Below are positions 9,086 to 39,700 of a DNA stretch of 64,000 nucleotides, in pieces. Location of the stretch: positions 9,508,129-9,572,128 of the forward strand of contig OZ037769.1 of NCBI GenBank assembly GCA_964035545.1. Reading direction: 5' to 3'. Origin of the DNA: Bugula neritina (taxonomy: Eukaryota > Animalia > Bryozoa). Both the position numbers and the translations under genes were made by a program. Each line of letters begins with the position of its first letter. Position 1 is the stretch's first letter. The notes under the pieces were generated by a model. That model ran no database searches and had not been told where the DNA came from. It was given only the letters and a program-made list of their open reading frames with translations.

Positions 9086-9275
9086 TGTTGTGTTTCAAAC
9101 AGGTGTATTGATCATAAAATAATTTACAATGAAAACAGTAGAAGTGTTACCACCTTATATATTAACTTGCACAAAAAAGCTGATATAGCTGTATATAAAT
9201 AAACAAAATAAGCGCTGAAGCTAACATGAAAAAGCCATTACATCTTTTAGATTTATGCAAAGTCATGCTATAACA
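9086..9275 (-). repeat. 3' LTR of the Mag-like Gypsy element
   Basis: TGTTGTGTTTCAAAC...GCTATAACA, direct repeat of 13618-13807. Confidence 0.95.
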
Positions 9276-9307
9276 CCTCCCGACTAGCTTAAAGTACTAT
9301 GTCTCTT

Positions 9308-11116
9308 TTAGCGTCTAGTTTGCCATCGGGTTCTGGTTGAACGTCTCGGATGGTCCCGGGTATATTCATCACCATCTGGTTGTCTAGGATTGCGTCTAGG
9401 TTGTGAGGGTACAGGATCTGGCTCTGGTGTTTCCTCTTGTTGTGCAGTATTTTCAGTGGTAACCATCAAATCATCAGGTGGCTCTGTATCTTCTGTACTG
9501 GAATGTCGTGGACAGAGTTGGTCAATGTGTCGTTTCCAAACTGGTCCTTTAGGTATGACTTTCACATTCACAGAGCGGCTCGCCAAAACTTTGATCACAA
9601 CTGCCTTGATCCACTTGGGTTGTCTGTCTCTTCTAGGCCCATAGTATAGAGCATAGCAAGGCGTTCCAACTGTGTAGCAGTGTAGTTTGTTGGTAGTCTT
9701 TTTCTGTTGCATCTGATGTCTTTGAGATAGGTGTGCTGGAGAGGGAAGTAGAACATCTATTTTGGCTCTGATCTGTCGTCCATTCAGTAGCTCACTTGGA
9801 GAAAATCCATAAGGCAATGGTGTTCTTCTGTATTGCATTAGGAACTCTTGGAGGGCCTCCCTGGGTGGAGGTGTAGACTTTCTCAGCGATTGCTTAAAGG
9901 ATTCTACTAGTCGTTCTGCTGCTCCATTGGTAGCGGGATGATAAGGTGCTCCTCTTAGGTTGACAATTCCTCGATCTTTACACCACTGTTGGAATTTTTC
10001 TGAAGTGAAACTGGGTCCATTATCTGTCACTATGGTATGAGGGTAACCAAAGTGAGCGAAGTCTGTCTCCAATAAGTTAGTTGTCATCTTGGTTGATATA
10101 GAGCTCGTAGGATGAATGCAAGGATACTTGGTGAATGCATCCACAAGCACTAGCCAATTTGTTCCCATAAAGTTGATTGCATGGTCTACGGGTAGTCTGC
10201 TCCATGGCTTTTCAGGCATCATCCAAGGGTGAACTGGTGACTTCTTTTCCTGGTTTTGGTGCTCTCCGCAGGTTGAGCATTGCTGTGACAATTCTGTAAT
10301 GTCGTTGTCTGATCTTGGCCAATAGACTGCTGTGCGGGCAAGTTGCTTCATACGTTGTCTGCCAAAGTGTCCCATATGTAGTATTTCTAACACTTGTTTC
10401 TGCAGGGATAAAGGTATGACAATCCTTGCTCCATAGAGTAGGCATCCGCTTTCAACTGTCAGTGAGGTTGCGATCTTCTTGAAGTCTTTAATGGTGTAGC
10501 CATCAGCGATTGTTTCTGACGATTCTTTGCTTTCTTCACCATCCATCCATCCTTCCATAGTGTATCGCATCACGGTGCTGAGTACTGGATCTTGGGCCGT
10601 CTCTTTCTTTAGAACTCCAGGATCTGTAGGTTTCAGCTGCTTTCCAATAGTCTTTATTGTGCAAACTGTGTCGATATCCACACCTTCTTCCTCCTTATCA
10701 AAGCCATCGTCTGATCCCATTGGTAGGCGACTCAGTATGTCTGCATTGCCGTGGTCTGATGTCTTTCTGTGTTCAATGGTGTACTTGTATTGGCTGAGAG
10801 TGAGTGCCCATCTAGCAAGTCTCTTGGCTGCCATAGCTGGTGTTGCTTTGTTGGGTCCAAAGATTGCCAGTAGTGGTCGGTGATCTGTAACCAATACAAA
10901 GCTTCTTCCATACAGAAACTGATGAAACTTGGTGATTCCAAATATGATTGAGAGTGCTTCCTTCTGTACTTGACTGTATCTTTGCTGAGTTTTTGTCAGA
11001 GTTTTGCTGGCATGGGCAATTGGTCGCTCTGTCCCGTCTTGGTAATGATGAAACAACACAACTCCAATTCCAACTTCTGATGCATCACAGGATATGCCAA
11101 TTTGTAGAGGGGTCAT
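9308..11116 (-). CDS. RNase H-integrase (3' part of pol, separated by a frameshift)
   Basis: RNase H CDAS...EAL...TDH; integrase HMGH...CSTC, VDH, TDNG, NGAAER. Confidence 0.92.
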   Translation of the reverse strand: MTPLQIGISCDASEVGIGVVLFHHYQDGTERPIAHASKTLTKTQQRYSQVQKEALSIIFGITKFHQFLYGRSFVLVTDHRPLLAIFGPNKATPAMAAKRLARWALTLSQYKYTIEHRKTSDHGNADILSRLPMGSDDGFDKEEEGVDIDTVCTIKTIGKQLKPTDPGVLKKETAQDPVLSTVMRYTMEGWMDGEESKESSETIADGYTIKDFKKIATSLTVESGCLLYGARIVIPLSLQKQVLEILHMGHFGRQRMKQLARTAVYWPRSDNDITELSQQCSTCGEHQNQEKKSPVHPWMMPEKPWSRLPVDHAINFMGTNWLVLVDAFTKYPCIHPTSSISTKMTTNLLETDFAHFGYPHTIVTDNGPSFTSEKFQQWCKDRGIVNLRGAPYHPATNGAAERLVESFKQSLRKSTPPPREALQEFLMQYRRTPLPYGFSPSELLNGRQIRAKIDVLLPSPAHLSQRHQMQQKKTTNKLHCYTVGTPCYALYYGPRRDRQPKWIKAVVIKVLASRSVNVKVIPKGPVWKRHIDQLCPRHSSTEDTEPPDDLMVTTENTAQQEETPEPDPVPSQPRRNPRQPDGDEYTRDHPRRSTRTRWQTRR

Positions 11117-13490
11117 AGTGTGCTAATACCAGATCACTGCTTAACATCTTCTTCAGTTGTAAAAATGATGTTTGCTGCGTAGTACCCCACTGCCATTGCT
11201 CTCCTTTCTGCAATAACTTTTGAAGTGGTGATGTGACCGTGGAAAGATCCGGCAAGAACTTGTGGTAGAACTGTACAGATCCTAGGAAGGATTTCAAGCT
11301 TCTAACATCAGTCGGGGCTGGCATCTTCTTCAAGGCTTCTACACCAGATCCTTTTTCTATACCTTTGTCAGAAAGCTTGTGTCCCAGGTATTCTACTGAC
11401 TGTTCTGCGAATACACATTTCTCCAGTTTGCGTCTTAATCCTCGGTCTTGCAGCCGTTGCAATAATCTTTGTAGATTTGTGATGTGATCTGTGGCTGTGG
11501 CTCCACTGACTAGAATGTCATCCAAATAGACTGCTACTCCGGGTAGATCACATGTGAGCTGCTCCATAATCTCCTGGAAATAACCGGGTGCTGAGCTGAT
11601 ACCAAAAGGTAAGCGCTTCTGTAGTAGAACACCACGATGAGTGCTGAGAGCCAACCTTCTTTGGCTTTCTGAAGCTAGAGGAATCTGATTGTATGCGTCT
11701 GCCAAGTCAATCTTCGAGAAACCATGTCCTCCTCCAAGTTTCCTCATCAGGTCTTCTGGTAAAGGAATTGGTTGACGATGATCCTCTAGTTGAGAGTTGA
11801 CTGAAACAGAGTAGTCTCCACATACACGTAGCTTTGGCTTTGGCTGTCCAGGTAGTTGTGCTTTGCGTATAGGAACTACTGGTGTGCCATAGGAATTGAA
11901 CTGCACTGGCTCCCATACTCCTTTAGCAATTCCAACATCATAGGCTTGAGTTAAGTCTTCTTGAATGGCGTAAGGTACAGGTCGGGGTTTGCAGAATACT
12001 GGCTTAGCATCTTTCTTGAATTTGACTTCTAATTCAAAATCTTTGAGGCATCCCAGTTCTGGTTTGAAGAGGCTGCTGAACTCCATTGTTAGTTTTTTAC
12101 AGGATTCCTTGAGATTGAGGTTGACATTATGAACATCTTTGCTGATGTCTTCTCCATCTGTAGGCTGCATCAAGGAATCCACAGAAACTCCCAATTGTTG
12201 AATTCCATCTCTGCCGAGTAGGTTTAGGTTGGGTATTCTGCTGATGACAAATTGAAGTTTCTTCTGCTGGTCTCCGAATTTGGTGAAGAGTTCACAGGTT
12301 CCCATGATGTCAATTGGATGATGCGTAGCTGATTCATAATGTATCTGTTGTGATTGAAGATTAGGTGATCCTAGTCTTTTCCAGTTCTCTAAAGACAAGA
12401 AGTTGTCTCCTGCTCCAGTGTCGACTTCTAATTGAAAAGATTGACGTTGAAGAGTTACATCTACTTGTAGTTGAGGAACTGTGTTCATAGTCTTTAAGGT
12501 CCTAATAACTTTGAGTGGTTTGCTGTCATTCATCTTCTTCTTTCGGCATACAATTTCAAGATGTTCAGTGAGTTTGCAGTAGTTGCATGTAGAACTTTTG
12601 TATCTGCATTCTGCTGGCTTGTGATTTGTCTTTCCACAGCGATAACAGGGTTTGTTGATCTGTGTTGGCTGGGTCGTTGGTGTAGAGCTTGGAGTCGTCT
12701 TCTTCTTCTTGCTGACTTTATGGAGAGCGTTGACCTCTCCGTGAACAGTTTCTTTAGCTACTTTAGCTGCTTCTTCAGTTTCCACAGCGATTTCAGTAGC
12801 TCTGTTGAAAGTGAGATCTTCGTCCTTGAGTTTAAAGATTGCCTTCAGTATAGCTTCATTTCCTACTGAGCATATAAATCTGGTACGAAGTGCTTCATCT
12901 TGTGGGTCAGTAATTGAAGAAAAGTCACAAGTTGTTGCGTCATGTCGAATCCTAGCTGCTAGTTCTGGAATAGTCTCCCCTGGCTTCCTTTTCATGTAGT
13001 GCCAAAATCTGTATCTTTCTCTGATGATGAATGTCCTTGGGTTATATTGTGTCATCATGTAGTTGTTAACTTCATCCATCGTCAGTTTGTTGATCTCCTT
13101 CTTTGGTGTCTGCTGCTCCGCCCAATCACTCAACTGCTTGTAGATGGCTGTTGATTGGTTTGTCAAAAATACTTGTGGTATTTTATCCTCTGCGATTGAG
13201 TTGGCTCCAATGAAGGTGGTGAATCTTGCTGAATATTGAGTCCATAGTTCTGTACTTGGATCAAATGCTGCAAAATTCGGGGTTGATGCTGGGGTTTTCT
13301 TCTCTGCTGACTGGGTGAGTAGTTGATGCAGCTCCCGATTTTCTGTTTGCTGCTGTTCCATCCTTGCTTCTTGCTCTTCCATCCTTGCTTCTTGCTGTTC
13401 CATCTGTTGCTTCTGCAAATCCATCTGTTCCTTTTGCTGTGCCAACTGCTGGGTTAGCAAAGCTATCAGTTGATCTGTAGGTGTAGACAT
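11085..13490 (-). CDS. Gag-protease-reverse transcriptase (5' part of gag-pol)
   Basis: Tandem zinc knuckles CYRCGKTNH...C and CNYC...H...C, protease VDTGA, RT motifs IDLADAY, LPFG and YLDD. Confidence 0.93.
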   Translation of the reverse strand: MSTPTDQLIALLTQQLAQQKEQMDLQKQQMEQQEARMEEQEARMEQQQTENRELHQLLTQSAEKKTPASTPNFAAFDPSTELWTQYSARFTTFIGANSIAEDKIPQVFLTNQSTAIYKQLSDWAEQQTPKKEINKLTMDEVNNYMMTQYNPRTFIIRERYRFWHYMKRKPGETIPELAARIRHDATTCDFSSITDPQDEALRTRFICSVGNEAILKAIFKLKDEDLTFNRATEIAVETEEAAKVAKETVHGEVNALHKVSKKKKTTPSSTPTTQPTQINKPCYRCGKTNHKPAECRYKSSTCNYCKLTEHLEIVCRKKKMNDSKPLKVIRTLKTMNTVPQLQVDVTLQRQSFQLEVDTGAGDNFLSLENWKRLGSPNLQSQQIHYESATHHPIDIMGTCELFTKFGDQQKKLQFVISRIPNLNLLGRDGIQQLGVSVDSLMQPTDGEDISKDVHNVNLNLKESCKKLTMEFSSLFKPELGCLKDFELEVKFKKDAKPVFCKPRPVPYAIQEDLTQAYDVGIAKGVWEPVQFNSYGTPVVPIRKAQLPGQPKPKLRVCGDYSVSVNSQLEDHRQPIPLPEDLMRKLGGGHGFSKIDLADAYNQIPLASESQRRLALSTHRGVLLQKRLPFGISSAPGYFQEIMEQLTCDLPGVAVYLDDILVSGATATDHITNLQRLLQRLQDRGLRRKLEKCVFAEQSVEYLGHKLSDKGIEKGSGVEALKKMPAPTDVRSLKSFLGSVQFYHKFLPDLSTVTSPLQKLLQKGEQWQWGTTQQTSFLQLKKMLSSDLVLAHYDPSTNWHIL

Positions 13491-13593
13491 AATTTTTGAA
13501 GTATGTCTAAATGAAGAGTCTTTGAAGATTTGAAGATTCTGATGATAACCGCGTAAAGTAGAAGTAGATGATCAGTTGAAAATCCTTGAAGCT

Positions 13594-13612
13594 AATCCTA
13601 TCCTCGTCGCCA
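13594..13612 (-). promoter_or_regulatory. PBS complementary to the 3' end of tRNA-Ser(GCU)
   Basis: Plus strand AATCCTATCCTCGTCGCCA resembles the metazoan tRNA-Ser(GCU) 3' end (...ATCCCATCCTCGTCG-CCA); lies 5 nt from the LTR. Confidence 0.75.
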
Positions 13613-13617
13613 AAATC

Positions 13618-13807
13618 TGTTGTGTTTCAAACAGGTGTATTGATCATAAAATAATTTACAATGAAAACAGTAGAAGTGTTACCACCTTATATATTAACTT
13701 GCACAGAAAAGCTGATATAGCTGTATATAAATAAACAAAATGAGCGCTGAAGCTAACATGAAAAAGCCATTACATCTTTTAGATTTATGCATTGTCATGC
13801 TATAACA
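13618..13807 (-). repeat. 5' LTR of the Mag-like Gypsy element
   Basis: Direct repeat of 9086-9275, adjacent to the PBS. Confidence 0.95.
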
Positions 13808-13812
13808 CACTT

Positions 13813-24700: not shown

Positions 24701-27700
24701 GATATATAGTGTATACTAAATATTAGAGGTATATAGTGTATACTAAATACTAGAGATATATGTACCTTTACCTGTACCTGCACCTATCCCTTGGTCGGAC
24801 TGACCGTTGGGGTACCACTGTTGATCTTTGCAACCAGCCCTCTCCATCCCTTTCTGTTCTCTGTTCTCTTCAAGTTGTCGCTCAGTGTCTTTCCGGTCCA
24901 TTCTGTGATGTTGTCCTCCCATCTCTTTCTCTGCCTGCAGTTATGTACGGTTCCTTGTAGGATTGTCTTGACAAGTCCTGTGGATCTTTTGACATGCCCA
25001 TTATACCACTTCAGCTTCCGTCTCTTCACAGTAGTCAAAAGATCTTTGTGATGTCCCACTGTGTTTGTGACTCTGTTCCGTACCTCAACATTTGTGATGT
25101 GGTCTTTGTAGGAGATGCCTAGGAGCCTGCGGTAGCATCTCATTTTAGTTGCCTGTATTCTTCTCTCCAAATCTGTTGTCAGTGTCCATGACTCACAGGC
25201 GTACAGGAATATGGAGATGACCAGTGATCGCATCAGTCTGATCTTTGATCTGAACGTGATCTTTCTGTCATTCCAAACAGGCCTCAGTTTTGTCAGGGCG
25301 GCTGTTGTTTGCGCAATCCTGGAGAGAATTTCAGGCTTTGATCCTTCATCTGATACGACTGACCCAAGGTACTTGACAGTTCCAAGTTTCTCGCCATTGA
25401 CTTTGACGTCTGTGTTGATGCCGTCGGTATTGTTGGTCATCAGCTTGGTTTTCTCGGCACTGATCTCCATGCCGTACACTGCTGAGGTTGTATCCAATCG
25501 TTCTACAAGTTTGACGAGCTCTTGTTCTTCCCCTGCTAGTCCGTCAATGTCGTCTGCAAAACGCAAGTTGGTAATTGTTCTGCCTCCAATGCTGACTGTT
25601 CCATTGTGCTCTTCTAGTGCGTCAGTCATGGTTCTTTCCAAGAAGATGTTGAAGAGAATTGGAGAAAGCAAACAGCCTTGTCTGACCCCGACCGTCGTCC
25701 CGAACCAGTCCCCTATGCTTCTGTTCAGGTAAACTGCGCTGGAAGCCTTGTCATATAGTTGTTTTAATGTGTTGATCAGATTGGCGTTGATGTTATACAT
25801 CCTCATGGTTGCCCACAAAGCTGCATGCTAGACTCTGTCGAAGGCCTTCTTAAAGTCCACAAAGACATGGTAGGAGTTCTGTTGGTGTTGGAGGTACCTC
25901 TCGCACAGTATTCTGAGCTTGAAGATCTGTTTTGTTGTACTTCGCCCTGCTCTGAAACCTGCTCGTTCTTTCGTAATGATCTTCTCTGCTTGTGGTTTCA
26001 GTCTGTTCAGCAGGATCTTCAACATGACTTTACTGGGGTGGCTTATTAGGCTAATAGTGCGGTAATTCTGGCACACCTGTAGGTTGCCTTTCTTGGGGAG
26101 TGTGATCACCAGTGATTGTGTCCATAGTGTTGGCCATTTTCCTGTCTGCCAGATCTTGTTGCAGATGATTGTCAGGGCGTTGATCATGGTCTCTCCCCTT
26201 GCCTGCACTAGTTCTCCTGGTATATCATCCACTCCTGCTGACTTCCCTTTTTTCAGTGCTTTGATTGCTGCTTCAACTTTTTCTCCAAGGATGGGATGGT
26301 CATCGGTGTTGGTTGCTGGAGGGACGTTTAGTAGTTCTGGGTTTCCTGTGGCTTTAGCTTTGTACAGTTCTGAGCAGCACTCTGTCCATCGTTTTAAAAG
26401 AGATATATAGTGTGTACTAAATACTGGAGTTATTTAGTGTGCACTAAATTAAGTTACATTACATTTTTAATGATGATAAATAGGCAAATGGCTGCAGCCT
26501 TTACAAACAGCATATGTAGCTTGTTTTTAACAGCACTTAATTTCATTTTTCCTATGCATTTCCACTCAATTTTGTTTTAGATTTAAACATTTCTAATAAA
26601 CAGAGCATTTGTGGTTCTCCACCCCAAGCACCTCACACTCAGCGTGTTGACATCTACACAAAGATATTACCAGGAAATGTCATACAGCAGCAGTGTGCTG
26701 ATAATTCTATTCTTATTAGATCAAGGGTGTGCACATGTATGTCGTCAGGGAGATGGGACTCATCTTGTGGAACTAGTACTCTTTGTCAAAGTTAGTAATT
26801 CAAACTTTGTTTTCCTATATTTATATCATACTTCAATTTTTACATAGTTATACAACATACTATAAAGTGCTCTTTTGTTTAACATTGTTTTTACAGAGAT
26901 TACTACAACTCCAACAACAACTCCAACTACAACTCCAACAACAACTCCAACAACAACTCCAACTACAACTCCAACAACAACTCCAACAACAACTCCAATT
27001 ACAACTCCAACTACAACTCCAACTACAACTCTAACAACAACTCCAACAACAACTCCAACAACAACTTTAACAACAGCTCCAACAACAGTTACTACAGCAG
27101 CAGCTTCTACAATAATAAGAAATTATACCCATACAACTTCTACTCACACAGCAATGATTAATAACCAAACTACTAATGTTTCCATGGTTGCTTCCACCTC
27201 AGTTTCCAATGCTAGTGCTATGTCTTCCAGTACTTCAATTGCAGCCAGTAATTTTTATACAAATACAACTAGTTACAGTATAAAAACTACCCCAAGCAAC
27301 AGGATACTTGCCACCAACATTAAAGCAATTGATTTCAACAGTACGGCGAATGGCTTTAACAGCTTAACCTTAGATGCTAACCTTACAACAGTTAGTACAA
27401 ACAATGATAGTACAACAATTGTTGCTAACAGTGTCACAACTTATACTAATGGTGCAACAATTGGTGCTAGCAGTTGGGATTTCAACAGCACAGGGACCAG
27501 TGAAAGTAGTGTGATAGATAACACCACCAGTACAATTATTGACACTACTACTGCATCAATTTATTCTCTCAACATATCTGCTGATATTAACAGTTCAATG
27601 ACTAGCACCAGCAGATCAACATTTGTTACAAACAATGCAACAGGGAATACCAACAGCTCAACAATCAGTACAGAAAGTGGGATAACCAGTATTTCATTAT

Positions 27701-30700
27701 ATCTCACCAGGACACTGGTTAATGGCCAAACAACAGCGGACACCAGCAGTGCAACAGTTGATACCAACATTAGCATCTATACAGACATCATAAAGGGTGT
27801 TACTAGCCTACCACCAATTATCAATGAAAAAACAGATAACACTAGCGGTACAGCCACAGGCATTGGTTCTATTAATTCAACTATCCGTACAAATGCTATG
27901 TATAACATCAGTGTAACTGATGCCAACATTGCAAGAATTGATAACCGTTTGTCAATTGATATCAACAACACAAAAACAATTATGGATTCCACTAGTACAA
28001 GCAGTATAATAAGTGATAGCCCTAATACAGCAAGTAAGACCAACAGTACAGCAGCTTCGTTTAATGTTGGAAGTTGTTACAAACCAAAAGTTCCAGAATT
28101 TGCTAAGATAACACCTGATCGTGAAATTTACTCTTTGAATTCCACAATTATATACAGTTGCATAGATGGGTACGTGTTGGGTAAAGGGAATATCAGCCGT
28201 AATTGTGTGAATCAAGGAGCATGGACTGGAGTGTCGCCTCTTTGCTTACGTGAGTTATGGTACAGATTATTTGTATATTTTGAATAGTTATGTTTTAGGT
28301 TATTCAATAGTCACAATATTTTTCATGCAAAGTAATAAAATAAAATGACAATTGGCTTCTAGTAGTTATCAAATAAACTCACAGCAGAACAGGGTTAAAC
28401 AATGCTGGCCAAATTTATGACATATTAAGCATGAAATGTTTACTTGGCCAATAATAATGTCTTCTATAATTTTATCATGCATTAATATAATATATTATAT
28501 TTATTTTTATGTTTAGTTTCTAAATTGAATCGTTTGACAATTGTAGTTTTCATTCAAAAGGTAAAGTAAATTTCACTTGAATTTGGTATAACTTCAGCTC
28601 GAAGATTATTTTTAAGATTAAGTTTTAAGATAATAACACAAACTTTATTTTGCAAGTTTTAGTGTAGTGAAATTATATGCTTACTATCAAAAGTTTTTCT
28701 ATACTTATGAATGATATTCAATCACAAAATCAACTAAATTGATTTAACTAGAAACACAATGATTTTAAATAGCTGAAAGCTAGTCATTGGTTCTGTTTGA
28801 AAATTTTAACCAGAACTTTAACCAAATTAACTGTAAGAAGCGTAGCTAATATATTTGGTCACGCCTCTGACAGTTGATTTTTGTTAAATTCCTGGTTATT
28901 CAGTATGCAGTAGCATTCATCAACTGACTTATCGTTTATTCTTGTGCAAGCAGCATTTTCACGTGGAATACGTTTTCTAATGGTTTACTTAGTATTTGTA
29001 ATACACTGTGTGTAAGCTTAACATAATATTAGAGTTATTGCTAATTTCAATTGATGGAATACTGATAATAGCTGACAGGCTTCTCATTGTTTTATTATTA
29101 TTAATTTCCATCAATTACAGCCTCGTGTTGATGTATAGTCTTTATTTGTGCAGACGTCTTAAACCTGCATACATGTAGTTACAAGCTACCTGAAATTTAT
29201 CTTGAGTGAATATGATGAAAAAAATGTAAATCTCATAATTCAGTTTAATATTGGTCCTAATATCTAGACAGTGATAAAACAGAATCAGCATGTTAACCAA
29301 AGTTTAGTTTATCAATTAGGCTGCAATACCTATGCTGGAATATTATATTCAGTTTAATTTTGCTCAGTTCTAATATAAAGCTAAAATAAATTATAGGGCT
29401 ATTATTTTATTTATTTTTAAAGCATATTAACATAGTACATACATACATCCGTGCAACTATATTCAGTATGCATACGTGCCGGCACACATTAACAGACAGA
29501 TGCAACAGCACATAGATTTTTTTTGTACAATATGTACAAATAAGCATAGTAACAATACTGCAATGGTAAGTGTGCTCACATTTGTAAATTACTTATAACG
29601 ATGAATGATTTACACTTAATATTTTTAGCTGCTTCAACTTCACAGCTATGTTCAGGAGTTCTGATGGATAATGGGCAATGTCTGACACTAAACAAACATG
29701 TCAGTATATGGAAGGATGCGAAATATAGATGCGAAAATAACTCCAGGCTAGCATTTCTTGAAGGTATAATTTAAAATCGTCATTGAACCTTACGGTCTGA
29801 TATATCTGGTTGATCACCACCACCTTAAGCTAAATATTATGTATAGTATGTATAGTATGTATAGTATGTATGTATGTATACTGTATAGTATGCATTGTAT
29901 GTGTTGTATGTATAGTATGTATACTATGTATTGTATGTATAGTATGTATTGTATGTTAAGTATATATTGTATGTATAGTATGTATTGTATGTATAGTATG
30001 TATAGTATGTATAGTCATAGTAGATGACCAAAGTGAACCATTTGAATAAACTAGATGTTATAATATAAATGTGATTGTAACTGTTCTTTTGCTGACCAGC
30101 TTTGGAATGAACTAGACGAGTTTTGGTTTACATTGCTACGATGTAAAATTTGTATATTTCTATATAAAGTAATTGGCAAATTGTGTTTTGATTGTGAACA
30201 AAAATAATCAGAAATGAAGCCAATCAATTTTTGGAAAAATAATAATTAAATAGCAGTCGAAAACTTGATCTAATACTTTTGAAGGATAAAAACTATATTT
30301 TATGGTCCTTTGGCTTCAGCTCTTAGTCTACATTAACTCAAATCAAGTTTCATTTATGCACCCTTAGAATCTGCAGTGACTTTTAGATTTATAAGTGCAA
30401 GAGCTACATTTAGCACTTGGTGGTTTAAATTTGAACTGTATTTGTGTTATTTAAATACATGTAGGCTACTTGTTATTTGATGTTGAATAATCAGTAGACC
30501 TATATAATGATAGTATTTCAAATTACTTTGTATTATTCGATAATTCTATTTCTTATTTAGAAAATTTCTGCTACTATATGAATTAATATTACTAGAGCTA
30601 ATCTTATATGTTAGCAAATAATTTAAAATAAATTAACAGTAATATAACTGCTTGGTCAAGTATCTACGTACAACAAAAATTTTGTTCCAAAAGAAACATA

Positions 30701-33700
30701 CTTTCAGATACGCTTGAAGCTTCAATCTTAGATTAGCCTATTTGGTAATCTGAACCAATGATGATAGAATTAAAATATGTTTTTAAATATCTCTAAATTA
30801 TTTTTGTGCATTAAGACAGTTGTTAACTTGTTGAGAAATTATAGTAAATTATGAAAAATAAAAAAGCGATTATATCATCTCTTTGATTAGATGCTAGTAA
30901 CTTCTATACAACCAATTATTTTAATTTAACACATATAAATAATGCGTTTGATTCCTCAACTCATTAACAATCTAATTGCAGATTAAAAACTGCGTTTTGT
31001 ATTTCTTAATTCAATGGTTCAACAGGATGTTAAGGTTTTACTTACAATTTTTTTTGGTGACATCGCACTAAAAAGTAGTGCTGGAGTGTTATTTGGAAAA
31101 TGTTTTGTTATAGATAGTCTGGTATTAAATGCTTCAGAACATCTACTAACTTACAATAATGTTACCGCAGCGTGGACTGGTGGTCATAGTGCTCAGAAAT
31201 GGAAATGGACTGGTATGCACAGTTTTTATTGGCTTTATATTATTTTCATTTATTATTTAAAATTTAAAGTCTTAGCCTCTAATTTAGTTGCATACCATTT
31301 AAGTTTGATTGTTGTAAGAATATAATAATTTACCTGAGGTTCATATGTGTTGCTAAATTTTCAAAGAAGCTTCTATGCAGCTGCGGTTGGGGTTTTTACA
31401 TTTTTATTTGAAGTGCAGCAGCAAGACCTATACTTTGAATACATCAAGATAAAGTTAAGACAATCTCTTTTTATTAGTGTACTTAGAAGGTTGCAAATAG
31501 TTTTTTTTGTGAAGGTTGCAGCTGTCATTCTTTGCACACCATTTTTAAGCTTCTTTGAAACTTTAAAGCATATTTATTGTATGTTGTTTGATATTAAGCT
31601 CTATTGATTGCATTATTTGACTTCAGATTATGTGTTTCCAGATATCTAATTAATTAATTTCAATTAAAACAGATGATTCAGAAATCACAGATTTTTTTTG
31701 GGCATCTAATTCCGCTCTGAACTTTGGCAGAAATAAGCATTACATTCAATTGAGTAAGGAAGATGCCTATAAATGGAGAGCTTCACCTGGTTCTCATGTG
31801 TATGATGTTTCTGATGGCTGGTCTGTAAACAAGTATATCTGTCAGTGTGAGTAAATCAGCAAGCCATCTATAATTCATCTATAATGCAAGGATAGCACAG
31901 GCTAAACAAATCAATATTAGTTTGATATTGCTTTTTCCCAGTTCTTGAACTATTATTTAGTACCAAATTTGCCCACTAGATGTTTATTAAAGTAAGATTT
32001 TACACCTAGACAGTATAAGCTTGCAATTTAGAAAGAAAGTCTCATGTTGGATCCTTTAAAAAAACATCTAATAGTAGTAACACATGTAGAACTTTGTATC
32101 CCTTAATTCTTGCTCTCACATGTGCCTCAAATATATTATACGGACTTAGGCCTTAGCTAATTTCTAGCTTTTGACATATTATCAAGTTGTTTGTTGAGGT
32201 ATTCATTCTTATTGTCTAATTTGTGATAATCTTGATTGGATTTTCAGTTTGAAACCAATGGACTAGTTAGCATTTACTCCTTAACTAATCTGGGTTTAAA
32301 GTTGCTAATGTGGAGGGAGCCTGGTGATGAGTATAATATGATTACATCTGCTGTAACATTGTACTCAGTTTAATTGGTTCTCACACTATGAGTGTATACA
32401 TACACAAGTGAAATCACACATGCATATTGTATGGGGGTCATTCCGTGTGAAATCAACCAAATTTCAGAAAGTCCCACGCTTTTGCGTCTTAGATTTTGTT
32501 CATATTTACACCAAATGGACCTACACATGTCCTGGGTACTATTCTTGAATATTTCTGACCTGACACAAAACCTTTTGAGGAATGACTACTTCCGTGAACA
32601 AAGGTTGGGAAAAATTTTGAGGAAAATTTGTGATTTTTACTTTTAGACCAATTTATAAACACCCATATCTCAATCATTTTTTAGCCTGAGCCTTAAAATT
32701 TGCTGTGTGATTTGATAACACTTATCAATTTGCACTAGTAGCAACACATACTACAGAATTCTTTGTGTGCATATATGCTAAGCCATTGACTATTGACAAA
32801 TTTTTGTAAATTTTGAAAAAAATTGAATATTCGGCACATCATAAAAGGCGTATAAATGTTTATCCATAAATAGGTGAATATGGTGACTTTATACTTCTCA
32901 ATTTGAGTAATTTTGAAAATTATATTTTCCGAGATATAGACGCCCAAAGGGAAGAAAATGTGAAAATTCGCCCGACTTCACAAGGATGTAACCTGATGTT
33001 TGAATACAGTAAAATCTTTCAAACAAACATTTTCTGTAAGGCCGTTTAGTTTATTTTCTAGATTCATAAGTTTGAACGTCCTTATATTGTCCAAACTTAA
33101 TGTAAATTGCATGAAAAAATGGTATGCGTATGAAAATCAACAAAATGCAATTTTTCAATATAATATGTTGGGATCATACATTTTTTATTATTCACATTAG
33201 TAGTAGAGGGTGGATGGTCCTGGGACAACCCTTCCCCCGTCGAGTCTTCGACTCTCCGGTGTCAGGGATTGTCCCAGGACGCATCCACCCTCTACTACTC
33301 TATTATAATTTTTATTAATTTTTTAGTATTAATTTTAAAAAAATGTATTAATTTTTCTCTCGTTGAGTTTTTGGTGTCAAGGATTGTCTCAGGATGCATC
33401 TATCTATTACTTTATTAGTTTTTATTAAGTTTTAGAAATTATACGTTTTAGGACAGTTTTATTGAGTTTATTGTCCTAGAATTGTACGTTTTAGGACAGT
33501 TTATTACCGTTAATTTAGAATGAAAAAAATATTTTATAGAGTTTTGTTTTAGAAATTGTATGTTTTAGGACAAATATTAACTTTTATTTTAGAATGTATT
33601 TACTCGTTACTATTAGTAATAGAAATAAATTATTATATGCTAAGAATATAATAATTTATTATTAATAGCGTTTAAACGTTATAACTTGAAAATGTTGGTA

Positions 33701-36700
33701 AAGATTCGGTAGATTCGATTATATTTCCATCACTCGTTGATAATATTAATTTATTACCCGTTGCGTCTTGTAATTTAGGAATAGCGTAATTATTTATATT
33801 ATTAGTTGTAATAATATTTGAAATATTTATACCCGTTTCTATAATATTACCATCACTCGAAAGCATTAATAATTTACCTCCAATTATTGGTTGTATTTTA
33901 TTTATAGCAAAATTATTTATATTACTAGTTGTAATAATATCGCTAACGCTTAAACTACTATCCGCAACATTACCCGAAGTAGTTGAAACGGTTAATTTTT
34001 CATTCGCGGGTTGTATTTTATTTATAGCGAAATTATTTATATTACTAGTCGTAATAATATCGCTAACGCTTAAATTACTATCTATAATATTACCCGTATT
34101 AGTTGATACGGTTAATTTTTCAGTTGGCTCTTGTATAAGAGGTATTGCATAATTAGATACATTAGTTTTTGTAACGACGTCATCAACTTTTAAATTACTA
34201 TCTATAATGCGTCCATCATCAGTTGATATAGTTAATTGATTAATGGGATTTTGTATAAGAGGTACTGCGTAATTAGATACATTAGTTTTTGTAACGACAT
34301 CATCAACTTTTAAATTACTATCTATAACGCGTCCGTCGTCGGTTGATATAGTTAATTGGTTAATAGGGTTCTGTATTTTAGGCATACTCGTATCATCAAC
34401 GTATTTTTTTGTAGCCACGTCTTGATCGTCAGCAGGATCAATAACTCTAGATATTTTATTTTCCCCCATATCTAGCGTACCCGTAAGAGTACTACTACCG
34501 TTTATTAAAACGAATCTTTTCGTATTTATTTCCGTTTTTCCGCTTCCTCCGAATTTATAAACACTCATTTATTACGGTATATAAAATTCGTCTAACCCGT
34601 GTCTATACCTCCCATTATTTTTTGAGGAAGAAAGATCTAAAGTAATAAAGCCGTGAGGTTTTTGCCATCCTTTATAACAAAAGTTTTTAAATTCGTTTAA
34701 CGTTAAATCTCCGTTTATGTGATCTTGATATATATGATTTAAATTTTTTCCATCTTGAGGAAATAAGCAAATAAAATTAGCGTTTTCCCGAATAGTGTTT
34801 CTAGGTAGCTTAAAATAATTTTGCGACAAATAAAAACAATCAACGTTATTGTGTCGTCCTCTTACGTAATAACTTTCGCAAGTTTTTTGTTTTTCCAACA
34901 TTAAATCATCGAATATTATTAAATTTTTATTACTAGCGTCTAATTCGCTAGGATCATAAACGTCGTCACTAGATTCTATAAATTCGGCGTCTATATTACC
35001 GTTACCCCTACTATTTTTTAAAACACGAGTTACGTTTATACCCGCATTTATTATCGCGTCACTATTTTTAAAAAAATTTAAAATTTCTTCTTTAGTTAAT
35101 TTACGTTCGAAAGCCTTCCTCATATTTATATATTCGGGTTGAGAAAGGCTTTTACCGTAAATCATAAGTTTATCGTAATCGAGCCAATTAGGTTGTAATA
35201 GTAAGTTACAAAGTAAAGTAGTTTTACCGCATCCAGACTTTCCAACGATAAGACCTCTTATGCTTTTAGGAAGTAAAGGATTATTATTACGATTAATTTC
35301 GTTTTTCCACGAAAGATTTTCTATTTCCATTTATTATAATAAATGTATTGTTGTAAGTGTAAAATTAAAACGAAAACTCTTAATTATGAAAAAAGAGTAA
35401 GTAAAAATAATAGACTAATGGGTTACGGTAATTGCGGTCAATGCGGATGTAAAAAGACTACATTCGTTGGGTCGGGTTTAGCTAATAATTTAATAAATAA
35501 TTTACCTTTCGAATTGCATTATCCAGGTCATAATTTTTTAGGACCGGGTACTAAATTAAATAAGCGTTTAAATGACGACACGACTCCTAAAGAATGGAGT
35601 AAACCGGTAGATCGAGACGACGCTATAGCCATGAGACACGACGTATGTTACGCGCTTAATAAAGATACTAAAACTAGAAACGAAATATGCGATAAAAATA
35701 TGCTAGACGAATTAAAAGCTATACCTAATCCTACGCCCTCTGAACAGCGACACAGTCGTTTTGCCTCGGCAATAATAGGAGCGAAAAAGCGTTTAGGATG
35801 GGGATGGACGAACGAGTTAGCCGAAGAATTACATAAACCCGTACAAAAAAAATTTCGTAAAAGACGAGTTTGGGTATCGGGTATTGATAATATTTGGGCG
35901 GCTGATTTGGTTGATATGACTGAATTCGCTAAATTTAATAACGGTTATAAATATTTACTAACGGTAATAGACGTATTTTCAAAATACGGTTGGATAATAC
36001 TTTTAAAAAATAAGACCGGAAAAGCGACGGCTTTAGCTTTAAAAACAATTTTAACTCGTCGTAAGCCACAACATTTATGGGTTGATAAGGGAAAAGAGTT
36101 TTATAATAAAGACGTAAAGTCCTTAATAAACTTATATTCTACGGAAAATGAAGAAAAGTCTAGCGTAGTAGAAAGGTGGAATAGAACTATGAAAGAGCGA
36201 ATGTTTAAATATTTTTCAGCGAATAATACTTATAAATATATAGACGTACTAAAAGATTTAGTAAAACGGTATAACGAGACTAAACATTCGTCTATTGGAA
36301 TGACACCGATTGAAGCTAGTGACCCTTCTAATGAAAATAAAGTACGCGTAAAATTATATCCAAACTTACCAGCGCCTTCTAAACCTAAATTTGCTATAGG
36401 TGATAGAGTACGTATACCGCGTAAGAAACGAACGTTTGAAAAAGGTTATACCGTTAGATGGACGGAGGAAGTGTTTACTATAAGTAAAATATTATATACT
36501 AATCCGACTACTTATAAATTAACTGACTCGGGCGGGGAAGAAATTCAAGGATCTTTTTACGAACGGGAATTACAAAAGACGAGTCAAGAAATGTATAGAA
36601 TAGAGCGCGTAATTAAAAAGAAAGGTAAAAAGGCTTTAGTAAAATGGTTGGGTTATCCCGATTCTCAAAACTCTTGGGTAAATTTAAACGTTTTAGAACA

Positions 36701-39700
36701 ATTATAGTGGACACAAATGTAGACACTAGACACAAAAGTGGACACAAATGTAGACACTAGACACAAAAGTGGACACAAATGTAGACACTAGACACAAAAG
36801 TGGACACAAACACATTTGTGTCCATAAAAAGTGGACACAAATTAATATATAATAAATGAGTTACTTAAAGATTTACGACCCTATAAAAAGAGATAAAACC
36901 GTACAAGATTTTATTTCTCAAAAGAATAAATTAAAAGAAAATTTTAAACGAGAACGTGAGCGAGAATTAAATGCCGCGATGGCTCAAGAAAAATATTTTG
37001 AACCCGTAACGACTTCGCAAGCTCAAACGACTGACGCGTTAAAACAATTGCTTACATTACCCAATTATAATGTTCAACCGGCTATAACGGATGGAGTTAT
37101 AAATTTAGACGAATTTACGCAAAACGCTTTAGCTGGCTTAGAACCCGGCGCTTATAACGTAAAGTGGGATGGTAATAGACACGTTATTGGTATAAAACCT
37201 ATAAGCTTTAATGATGGTAAAATAATTTTTGAAAACAAAGAATATCCGGCGACTAGAGGACTTTTAAGTCTTTTAACGCGTAAAACGCCTATAGGATACG
37301 ATGATAATGATTTAGCGAATTACGCTAATATACTCGATAATAGCGGCGCTATATATCAAAGTAAACACGGTCCTATAGATAAAAATAGTGACAAGTGGAG
37401 ACGTATCGTTAGACCTATTTGGGAACAATTATATCCTCAAAGAGCGAAACTCGCTGATAGTAAAAAAGCTAAAAGGCAAGTCGGTGATGGAGTAGTATAT
37501 TTATCGTCTGATCCTAACGCTTTAATAGAACGACTCGAACTTTTAATTTCTAGCGCTAAAGCCGGAAATACGGGAGTGCGAAACGAAATTGTGTCTATAT
37601 TAGACGAATTACTTAGAATGAAAATTATTACTCATGATTATTATAAAAGTATTCTCGTATAATAAATGTACGTTTATGATAAAAGACAACGATTACAAAG
37701 ACACTACGCCGGTGGTGGAATAATTGATACCATTAGGAATGTAGTAACTAAAATAGCTAGTAATTCCAGCGTAAGAGAATTAGGTAAAAAGGCTATAGCT
37801 AAAGCGGGTACCGCGGCCGGTGAAAAAATTGTTAACGCGATTAAGAAAAGAAGACAAAAAAAGTTAAACGCTAAAAGTCAAGCTATATTACAAAAACTTA
37901 GTTTAGCTAAAGATAATAGTAATATAAGTAATATTTTAGAAGGAAGCGGACAAGCTATAGCTTATTAAGAAATTATTTTTACTATAATAAATGGACTCTC
38001 TAAATATTACGCAAAAAATTGTACTCGATACGAGCGTAGAGCGCGATCAGGTACACGAATACGAACCCGTAACGGGAACGAATTTAAATTACCCCGGTGA
38101 AATTAGAATAGTTATTAATCAACAAGATTTGTACGTTCAGCCGAGTAAAAGTTATTTGATTATCGAAGGACGTTTAACAAAAAATGATGGAACCGCTTAC
38201 GCCGACGCCGACTTAGTAACGTTAATTAATAACGGTATGGCTTATTTGTTTAAAAGTATTAGATATCAACTCGACGGACACGACTTGGAATATATAAATA
38301 ATCCCGGACACGCTTCGACTATGATGGGTTTACTAACTTATCCCGACGACTACGGCAAGTCGAGAGGTCTTAATCAGTTGTGGTCAAAAGATACTACCGC
38401 AGCCGCTGCCGCCGCTAATTTAGGTTTTAACGCGCGTCAAATTTATATTATACAAAAGCCTGACCCTAAAGGTACTTTTAGTATTAAAGTGGATCTCAGA
38501 CATTTGTTCGGGTTCGCTGACGATTATGAAAAAGTATTATACGGTATAAAACATCAATTAACGCTAGTACGCGATACCAACGATAACGCTATATTTAGAG
38601 CAAACGGTGTAGACGCGGGAAAAATAACGTTAGATAAAGTGTCGTGGTGGATGCCTCACGTAACGCCTAGTTTTGAAATGAAGCATAAACTCTATAAAAT
38701 TATAGAGAGTAAGGCGCAACTACCCCTAATTTATAGATCTAGATGGTGTGATAGTATCGCGGTGCCGCAAACTACTAATTTTACGTGGCGTTTGGGTTCT
38801 AGAGGAGATACGGAAAAACCTAAATATATTATCGTAGGTTTTCAAACGAATAAGACTGAAAGTCAAACGGCTAATCCGGCAGTATTTGATCACGTTAACG
38901 TTAAAAGTATATACGCGATGCTAAATAGTGAGCGGTATCCCGAAGTTGATTACGATATAGATTTTGCTAAAATGAAGTTTAGTAGAGTGTACGGAGACGC
39001 TTCTAAATTTTGTGGAGAATATTACGGTATAAACGAGCTAATCGCTTATTCAAACGTATTACCTTCGGAATATAAAGATCTTTACGCTTTGTTCGTAATA
39101 GACGTTAGTAAGCAAAGCGAAGCTCTTAAAAGTAGCGTAGCCGATATTCAATTGAGAGTTCAGTTTAGTCAAAACGTGCCGGCTGATACTCAGGCGTACG
39201 CGTTAATTCTATCGGATAAAACTATGTCTCTCGGTTCCGATGGAAATAATTTAAAAGTTATATAAATGGAAAATAAATTATTAAGAGAAATTGCCGATAA
39301 TACGGCCTCTAAACAAACGATGACTATAGGAGTTACCGATACTAAAACGAGAATAATTACTCAACTTAATCCGCCTATAGAGTTAAATAAAAATAAAAAA
39401 TACGAAATGTGTCTTATTAGTTTAGATACGTTTTATTCTTTTCCAAACATTAGTACCGATAGAAATTCCTATAGATGGTCTAAAGACGGTGGTACTACGT
39501 GGCATTTAGTTTCGTTACCAGTCGGAGTGTACGAATTAGATCAACTAGAAGAAGCTATTCAAGACGAAATAGTAAAAGAGGGGGGTAATAGAAACGGTAT
39601 TACTTTGCAAGCTAATAAAGTAACTTTTAGAATTATACTTAAATTAAAACCTAATTACCAAATAGATTTTAACGTTGAAAATTCTTTAAGAGACGTTTTA

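Follow-up and report, generated by a model that had tools for sequence, protein, structure and literature searches.

Animal Polintons of the kind that includes the Beta-type adintoviruses and the pPolB2 polymerases have AGTAGT ends, a 6-bp target-site duplication and terminal repeats of a few hundred base pairs, and encode an integrase, an ATPase, a capsid protein, a protease and a protein-primed polymerase (pPolB) with an inserted HNH-type nuclease (PMC8097293, PMC8502044, 10.1101/2023.08.22.554363). The words 'hairpin' and 'palindrome' are absent from the main text of these three papers and of a coral survey, and the available parts of PMC11296320, PMC6431247 and 10.1101/2023.10.06.561300 contain nothing on hairpins at Polinton ends. 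The only account of terminal palindromes in this virus group that we found in print, with subscription papers, Repbase reports and preprint supplements lying outside the search, is a 2026 preprint on Halocafeteria seosinensis (10.64898/2026.07.28.741278). In endogenous virophages of this protist (subtypes 1, 2, 5 and 6) and in polinton-like viruses (PLV) of subtype 4, it describes palindromes within the terminal repeat, adjacent to the target duplication, which every complete copy of a given subtype shares; hairpin priming is proposed for them, with accident named as the alternative. These palindromes (52 nt in subtype 5, detected with a gap limit of 10) are mostly associated with elements that do not encode pPolB. 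Telomeres of Streptomyces, which rely on end patching by Tap/Tpg, are described as protein-primed linear ends whose 3' tip folds onto an inner complementary copy, with hairpins in between (PMC4513846). Thus, fold-back ends and protein priming can coexist, and the premise of the initial annotation that protein-primed replicons have only simple ends is not supported.

The window analysed here, 64 kb of the Bugula neritina genome, contains an adintovirus-type Polinton/Maverick of 14,194 bp (33199–47392), which resembles the described animal Polintons but, unlike them, has a fold-back starting at base 1 inside each terminal repeat. The element is delimited by AGTAGT ends, terminal inverted repeats and the target-site duplication CACATT, present on the forward strand at 33193–33198 and 47393–47398. 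Its core genes include a packaging ATPase on the reverse strand (34572–35330; Pfam Pox_A32, E 2e-8) and, on the forward strand, a retrovirus-like integrase with PLA2-like, rve and chromo domains (35343–36707; Pfam, with rve above the cut-off), an ORF matching PF21738 (37991–39265; E 7e-57), pPolB, and an adenovirus-like protease (45646–46047; matched only weakly in Pfam, E 0.004). The encoded proteins include a double jelly-roll capsid protein. The polymerase gene is split, in an otherwise open element, into two frames overlapping near 42638–42713, an N-terminal piece (41994–42713, forward strand) and a main piece (42638–45649, forward strand). A relative of 1252 residues spans both pieces, and the split is either a mutation or a sequencing error. 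At E<=1e-20 the polymerase has 7995 relatives. Proteins with named sources among the relatives belong to a sea anemone, a scallop and a bryozoan and, like the retroelements and the Sushi-domain ORF of the window, mark the host as an animal. None of the element ORFs matches PF03175 in Pfam, which fits the Beta type as described in PMC8502044. Both fold-backs adjoin CACATT, and the host repeat interrupted by the element has an uninterrupted copy at about 48714–49541 in the window and also in read sets; the fold-back ends are therefore the true ends of the element. As to the host repeat itself (32601–33198 and 47393–47909), its second copy at 48069–49541 is inverted, uninterrupted and ~90% identical, and lies directly to the right, so that the two form a large inverted pair.

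The left fold-back (33199–33299, 101 nt) consists of an outer arm formed by the terminal 30 bp (33199–33228, forward strand), likely the replication origin, a 40-bp asymmetric spacer with 65% GC (33229–33268, forward strand) and an inner arm (33269–33299, reverse strand), which is the inverted copy of the terminal 30 bp with one extra C. The stem has 18 perfect outer pairs, the unpaired C and 12 further pairs; the inner arm ends precisely at the complement of base 1, and folding places a small 5-bp hairpin within the spacer (33242–33254, forward strand). As a DNA fold, the left 101-mer reaches -41.8 kcal/mol (z -11.5), which was equalled by none of 200 shuffles. The fold-back with its GC-rich loop and small hairpin is thus real at the coordinates given by the initial annotation, as is the mirror that it placed at the other end (47292–47392, reverse strand), which differs from the left one at 1 of 101 positions and folds to -36.6 kcal/mol (z -9.4) from the end inward and to -41.2 kcal/mol on the opposite strand. 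The two ends are identical at 100/101, 174/177 and 220/240 bases over growing lengths, and end alignment delimits a left terminal inverted repeat of about 290 bp that decays inward (33199–33490, forward strand) and a right one with an approximate inner limit (47110–47392, reverse strand). Relative to the element end, the loop has the same orientation on the left and on the right. The terminal sequence had been said to be present four times, and the terminal 18-mer indeed occurs exactly four times in the window, with 0.03 occurrences expected. The further degenerate copy reported at about 33373–33410 exists as well, but alignment shows it to be a tandem duplicate of the inner arm together with its AT-rich tail (about 33372–33445, reverse strand), and sister copies do without it: a joint skipping 119 bases (33305 to 33425) was found in three of four public sequencing runs. 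Judged from these contigs, this third copy is an optional 119-bp tandem duplication in the family.

Compared with the Halocafeteria palindromes, the fold-back likewise lies in the terminal repeat beside the target duplication and is common to its subfamily, but it has a structured 40-bp spacer and an unpaired base, and it belongs to an animal element with pPolB and a terminal-protein-like domain; pPolB is also encoded at the two related loci with a fold-back described below (L067 and L189), so that the association with other replication genes is not seen here. From the Streptomyces telomeres it differs in that those have an internal origin, dedicated Tap/Tpg proteins and several packed palindromes that are conserved and required (PMC4513846). 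With parvovirus and poxvirus ends it shares a strong terminal fold-back and an imperfect stem, and the folded 3' end is flush against the element body, as in a parvovirus-type terminal hairpin. Such viral ends self-prime or are covalently closed and show flip and flop forms. At the Polinton end, no flip/flop was seen in 136 short contigs, which drop rare variants, and none of the 15 ORFs, seven of which match nothing in Pfam, has a Pfam match to an HUH Rep nickase.

One feature next to the fold-back may be added. In the window (33300–33305) and at one related locus (L189:5743–5750), CTA and an AT-rich tract come directly after the inner copy. They could reflect additional bases at the ends of the free form, but L067 does not fit; the idea that CT represents the two bases removed by the integrase likewise fits the window and L189 but not L067, and is no more than a lead.

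To compare the family, contigs from four public runs (X8, X9, X2 and X5) were placed on the window. The left 3.1 kb is matched by 600–1783 contigs per run at 85–100% likeness, a depth that does not equal copy number, and the spread of these left-end contigs points to many diverged copies. The 147-bp hairpin stretch is covered by 53 contigs in X8, 53 in X9, 30 in X2 and none in X5, where zero is no proof of absence. Some contig pieces start at base 1 and reach the loop, and others connect the loop, via the inner arm, with the interior of the element, which implies that the hairpin layout is common to sister copies; in these, the arms are less well conserved than the middle of the loop. The initial annotation had reasoned that a hairpin absent from other family members would imply a one-off template switch. 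Sister subfamilies keep the loop, and the hairpin is therefore not a one-off.

Loose contig ends in X8 lie before 33229 (two contigs, agreement 0.87) and behind 33267 (one contig). Counted from the element end, both depart from the window at paired positions 9, 10, 11 and 16; a fifth change affects just one of them, and they may come from different molecules. A change at 33290 makes up 77% of the depth in X8, 61% in X9 and 48% in X2, and in X8 and X2 the depth rises about fourfold at 33209, next to 33208, the partner of 33290; the step is indirect evidence of a contig break at a variable base. Sister subfamilies appear to change both arms together, but the variant table for the hairpin stretch contains no change in the outer arm itself, which counts against a concerted change. 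Flip/flop loop orientations and insertions ending at the inner copy, both suggested in the initial annotation as signs to look for, did not turn up: there was no strand-change joint or flipped loop among the 136 contigs of three runs (24 pieces listed), contigs being a form of data that drops rare variants, and no loose end at 33299/33300 among 18 of the 33 loose ends. The unpaired C was not moved in any of 12 indel rows. Past the inner copy, six bases are common to the sister subfamilies, after which they diverge.

Related Polintons were collected by polymerase scans, which gave 140 loci (1, 80, 8 and 51); in viral contigs, capsid and polymerase scans gave 1, 8 and 1 loci. A test of 160 inward-pointing AGTAGT motifs flagged three. 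Of these, L229 (score 21, p 0.01) was too weak to be retained, and the majority of the remaining motifs were not accepted as ends. Eighteen candidate ends were chosen by eye. Eight are supported, by a terminal repeat (L069), by a second copy with another flank (L182) or by a common tip with different flanks (the pairs L007/L009, L013/L018 and L031/L067); the other ten, including L189, were accepted on motif and position only. L082, L087 and L088, whose terminal repeats are cut by contig ends, and L060, whose contig begins inside the end, were left out of the count. A base-1 fold-back is present at 2 of the 18 candidate ends, L067 and L189, with a background of 11 in 1478 random window positions; the rate may be inflated, as L189 was first noticed via its hairpin. 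The fold-back of L067 has 72 nt (z -5.7) and 10 perfect outer pairs, that of L189 129 nt (z -13.6) and a perfect outer stem of 19 bp, followed by a structured loop and an AT-rich tail like those of the window. Since the three fold-backs are unlike in sequence and length, they are likely to be independent gains. L031 (4778) shares most of the first 26 bases of L067 (5962) but has no fold-back; none is found in L182 either, with a polymerase 61% identical in the best segment and an end confirmed by the second copy, and in L069 short near-copies of the tip occur in inverted orientation but fold only weakly (z -2.6). By comparison of these candidate ends, the base-1 fold-back is a recurrent but optional feature of related Polintons.

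Several other loci have hairpins in different positions. L060 starts with a 90-nt fold-back containing an inner small stem (L060:1-90), 750 bp before the pPolB gene; its first bases resemble a subterminal motif of L188, and its tip is missing. A strong hairpin lies about 130 bases inside the candidate end of L053 (L053:134-192), near the pPolB gene, and an AT-rich strong hairpin follows directly after the pPolB gene of L084 (L084:5755-5831). Many prokaryotic genome bins (G001, G004 and others; L180–L230) contain contigs with a Polinton-type polymerase, likely misbinned host DNA. G001 has 119 polymerase matches, many in pieces spaced as if interrupted, and five stretches of it contained no further complete element. 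The terminal 15-mer has 90 matches in viral contigs, which were taken as chance, and the loop sequence has none in prokaryote genomes and viral contigs.

The N-terminal polymerase piece is modelled with a mean pLDDT of 88 and contains a terminal-protein-like domain. The order predicted for residues 101-212 is one or more strands, a helix, two strands, a second helix, a Gly-Ser loop with Ser206 and a last strand; for residues 110-213 this amounts to two helices and four to five strands. Polinton terminal proteins are described with the same order of two helices and four to five strands and the same position of the linking residue in PMC11161782, where a section heading derives them from the Y-family little finger. 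Consistent with this, the six best structural matches of the domain are Y-family little-finger domains (Z 4.8-6.1, rmsd 2.7-3.1, 76-89 aligned residues), the Z values, all under 8, being middling. The best viral fold matches of the N-terminal piece are adintovirus and MELD virus proteins, and Foldseek against the PDB returned no match at E<=0.001 for either the N-terminal or the nuclease model. In an alignment of 24 sequences, which include L067 and L189, both Ser206 and Trp208 are conserved in at least 90%. The placement of a candidate linking Ser between helix 2 and strand 4 comes from prediction only, and protein priming is likely to have been retained.

The nuclease inserted in the polymerase (zinc and catalytic core at 43559–43654, forward strand; Pfam, alignment and profile match) is of the endonuclease VII-like, HNH type, and HNH and VSR insertions are known in Polinton polymerases (10.1101/2023.08.22.554363), where such nuclease insertions have been read as intein-derived (PMC11161782). 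Across 57 aligned sequences, four zinc ligands, Asp-His-x-His and an Asn are kept. A profile match covers residues 7-67 of the 157 of T4 endonuclease VII (E 3e-4), that is, the 60-residue catalytic core only, and the glutamate that follows the Asn by three residues in T4 is present in 1 of the 57 sequences. This glutamate is important in the T4 enzyme. Outside the matched stretch lies the C-terminal part with which the T4 enzyme builds its domain-swapped dimer. By fold, the closest match of the nuclease model, a weak one (E 0.06), is Hpy99I, a restriction enzyme, with no endonuclease VII among the Foldseek matches listed for the model, and a single-sequence PDB search with the core gave nothing significant. 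The link between hairpin and endonuclease VII-like domain considered in the initial annotation finds no echo in the distribution of the motif, which is present in 115 of 120 polymerase relatives and, as a strict pattern, at 8 of the 16 loci without a fold-back at the candidate end. Nothing ties the nuclease domain to the hairpin.

Taken together, we consider it somewhat probable that the inverted second copy of the terminal 30 bases at each end was produced by copy-back (template switching), in which the polymerase encoded by the element likely acted on a free linear form, with priming likely still protein-based. The nascent strand would have folded back, either onto the displaced strand or onto its own 5' end, and the polymerase would have copied until it ran off at the protein-capped end and then returned to its template. 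The inner copy stops exactly at base 1, which makes copy-back on a free linear form its simplest origin, whereas a switch within the chromosome would presumably have no reason to stop there; this exact register recurs in the three unrelated sequences of the window (101 nt, 18 pairs), L189 (129 nt, 19) and L067 (72 nt, 10). Copy-back is inferred from geometry alone. The duplicate would then have reached the opposite end, to which copying through end-to-end pairing could carry it, and spread through the family. The basis of such a transfer is the adenovirus-type panhandle model. A panhandle is drawn as a model for Polintons in a figure legend of 10.64898/2026.07.28.741278. Repeated switching, selection or both might keep the outer 18 bp matched, but both ends still have the unpaired C that follows base 18, an argument against frequent switching from the inner stem, which would erase it. 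The better conservation of the loop middle than of the arms suggests that sequence, too, is under selection. If a single strand is displaced or excised, the fold-back may give its 3' end a local duplex origin, without waiting for ends that lie 14 kb apart. Computed end-to-end pairing is more stable (-141 kcal/mol) than two hairpins (-83 kcal/mol), so that any benefit of the local origin would be kinetic only. In this scheme, the fold-back is an optional accessory and not the replication mode of the clade.

The exact stop at base 1 is a difficulty for a reading in which the inner arm serves the integrase or the terminal protein-polymerase as an inverted binding site within a subterminal repeat array, and folding is a by-product. 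Such an array would explain the repetition of the 8-bp arm motif, which has six near-copies in the left 422 bp and two on the right, with both orientations represented, where 0.19 would be expected per 422 bp; moreover, the inner arm is itself tandemly duplicated, and inverted near-copies of the tip that fold only weakly occur in L069. However, neither the inner AGTAGT and the stop at base 1 in three families nor the perfect 18-19 outer pairs are explained by it, and we regard it as rather unlikely. The geometry of the folded 3' end, flush with the element body, would suit a parvovirus-style process in which an excised single strand uses its 3' hairpin as the primer of second-strand synthesis before the hairpin is nicked and resolved, a model that has also been proposed for the virophage and PLV palindromes of protists (10.64898/2026.07.28.741278). 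Self-priming with hairpin transfer, entertained in the initial annotation, nevertheless agrees poorly with the 136 contigs, in which, rare variants aside, there is neither a strand change nor a swap of the unpaired C, with the equal orientation of both window ends, with the terminal-protein-like domain retained here and in L067 and L189, and with the lack of a hairpin in most relatives; its probability appears low. A broader version, in which some animal Polintons have repeatedly gained a working fold-back origin, is improbable too, if marginally less so than self-priming as such: the single-stranded end would fold, its conserved loop would be recognised, priming would be by protein as in Streptomyces or by the end itself, and the HNH domain would nick the base of the stem to free the end or to remove the terminal protein before integration. 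If this were true, panhandle and hairpin initiation would alternate within one virus clade, and both Polinton excision and the removal of the terminal protein could be tested with an oligonucleotide of 101 bases.

Excision could alternatively proceed from a chromosomal cruciform with its base at the host junction, cut by the endonuclease VII-like domain. The four-way junction would then sit at base 1, and the domain keeps the zinc ligands and catalytic-type residues and matches part of an enzyme that cuts branched DNA (PMC10956419). This reading is nonetheless very unlikely, given that the motif is near-universal and present where the hairpin is absent, that the remainder of the T4 enzyme is unmatched and its glutamate almost never found, that the best fold match is to Hpy99I, and that a GC-rich spacer of 40 bp is unfavourable; in yeast, a spacer of 9 bp reduced breaks by 80% even with 320-bp arms (PMC8053094). 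A role of the fold-back in excision or resolution, as the initial annotation envisaged, is at present unsupported. An artefact of assembly or amplification deserves mention as well. Fold-back chimeras are a known artefact, and one related locus (L079) has a hairpin at its contig start inside polymerase sequence. In the window, however, both ends carry independent differences and are flanked by the target duplication, and contigs from two studies contain the structure; the two-end differences and the contig support effectively refute this extremely improbable explanation.

The copy-back reading and its competitors bear on unsettled questions, namely, how Polintons exit the chromosome, how their second strand is started and how they shed the terminal protein, a removal step called unclear in PMC11161782. 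The fold-back extends to pPolB-carrying animal Polintons a feature that we found in print only for protist elements, and L067 with and L031 without it form a matched natural pair for testing what an end needs. Even if it were only a copy-back relic, it would still record replication on a free linear form and so bear on whether these elements act as viruses.

Some further features of the locus are worth recording. The integrase combines, in its single frame, an N-terminal PLA2-like domain of the parvovirus VP1 type and a C-terminal chromodomain. An ORF at the left end (33672–34568) contains tandem repeats of about 40 residues, and two related ORFs in tandem, to which no function is assigned, occupy the right end (46048–47081). 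Elsewhere, the window contains remnants of Copia-like and gypsy-like LTR retroelements, a reverse transcriptase of the non-LTR type and an ORF with a Sushi domain and a 12-bp repeat (482–2564, 9086–13808, 24784–26433 and 26866–28287).
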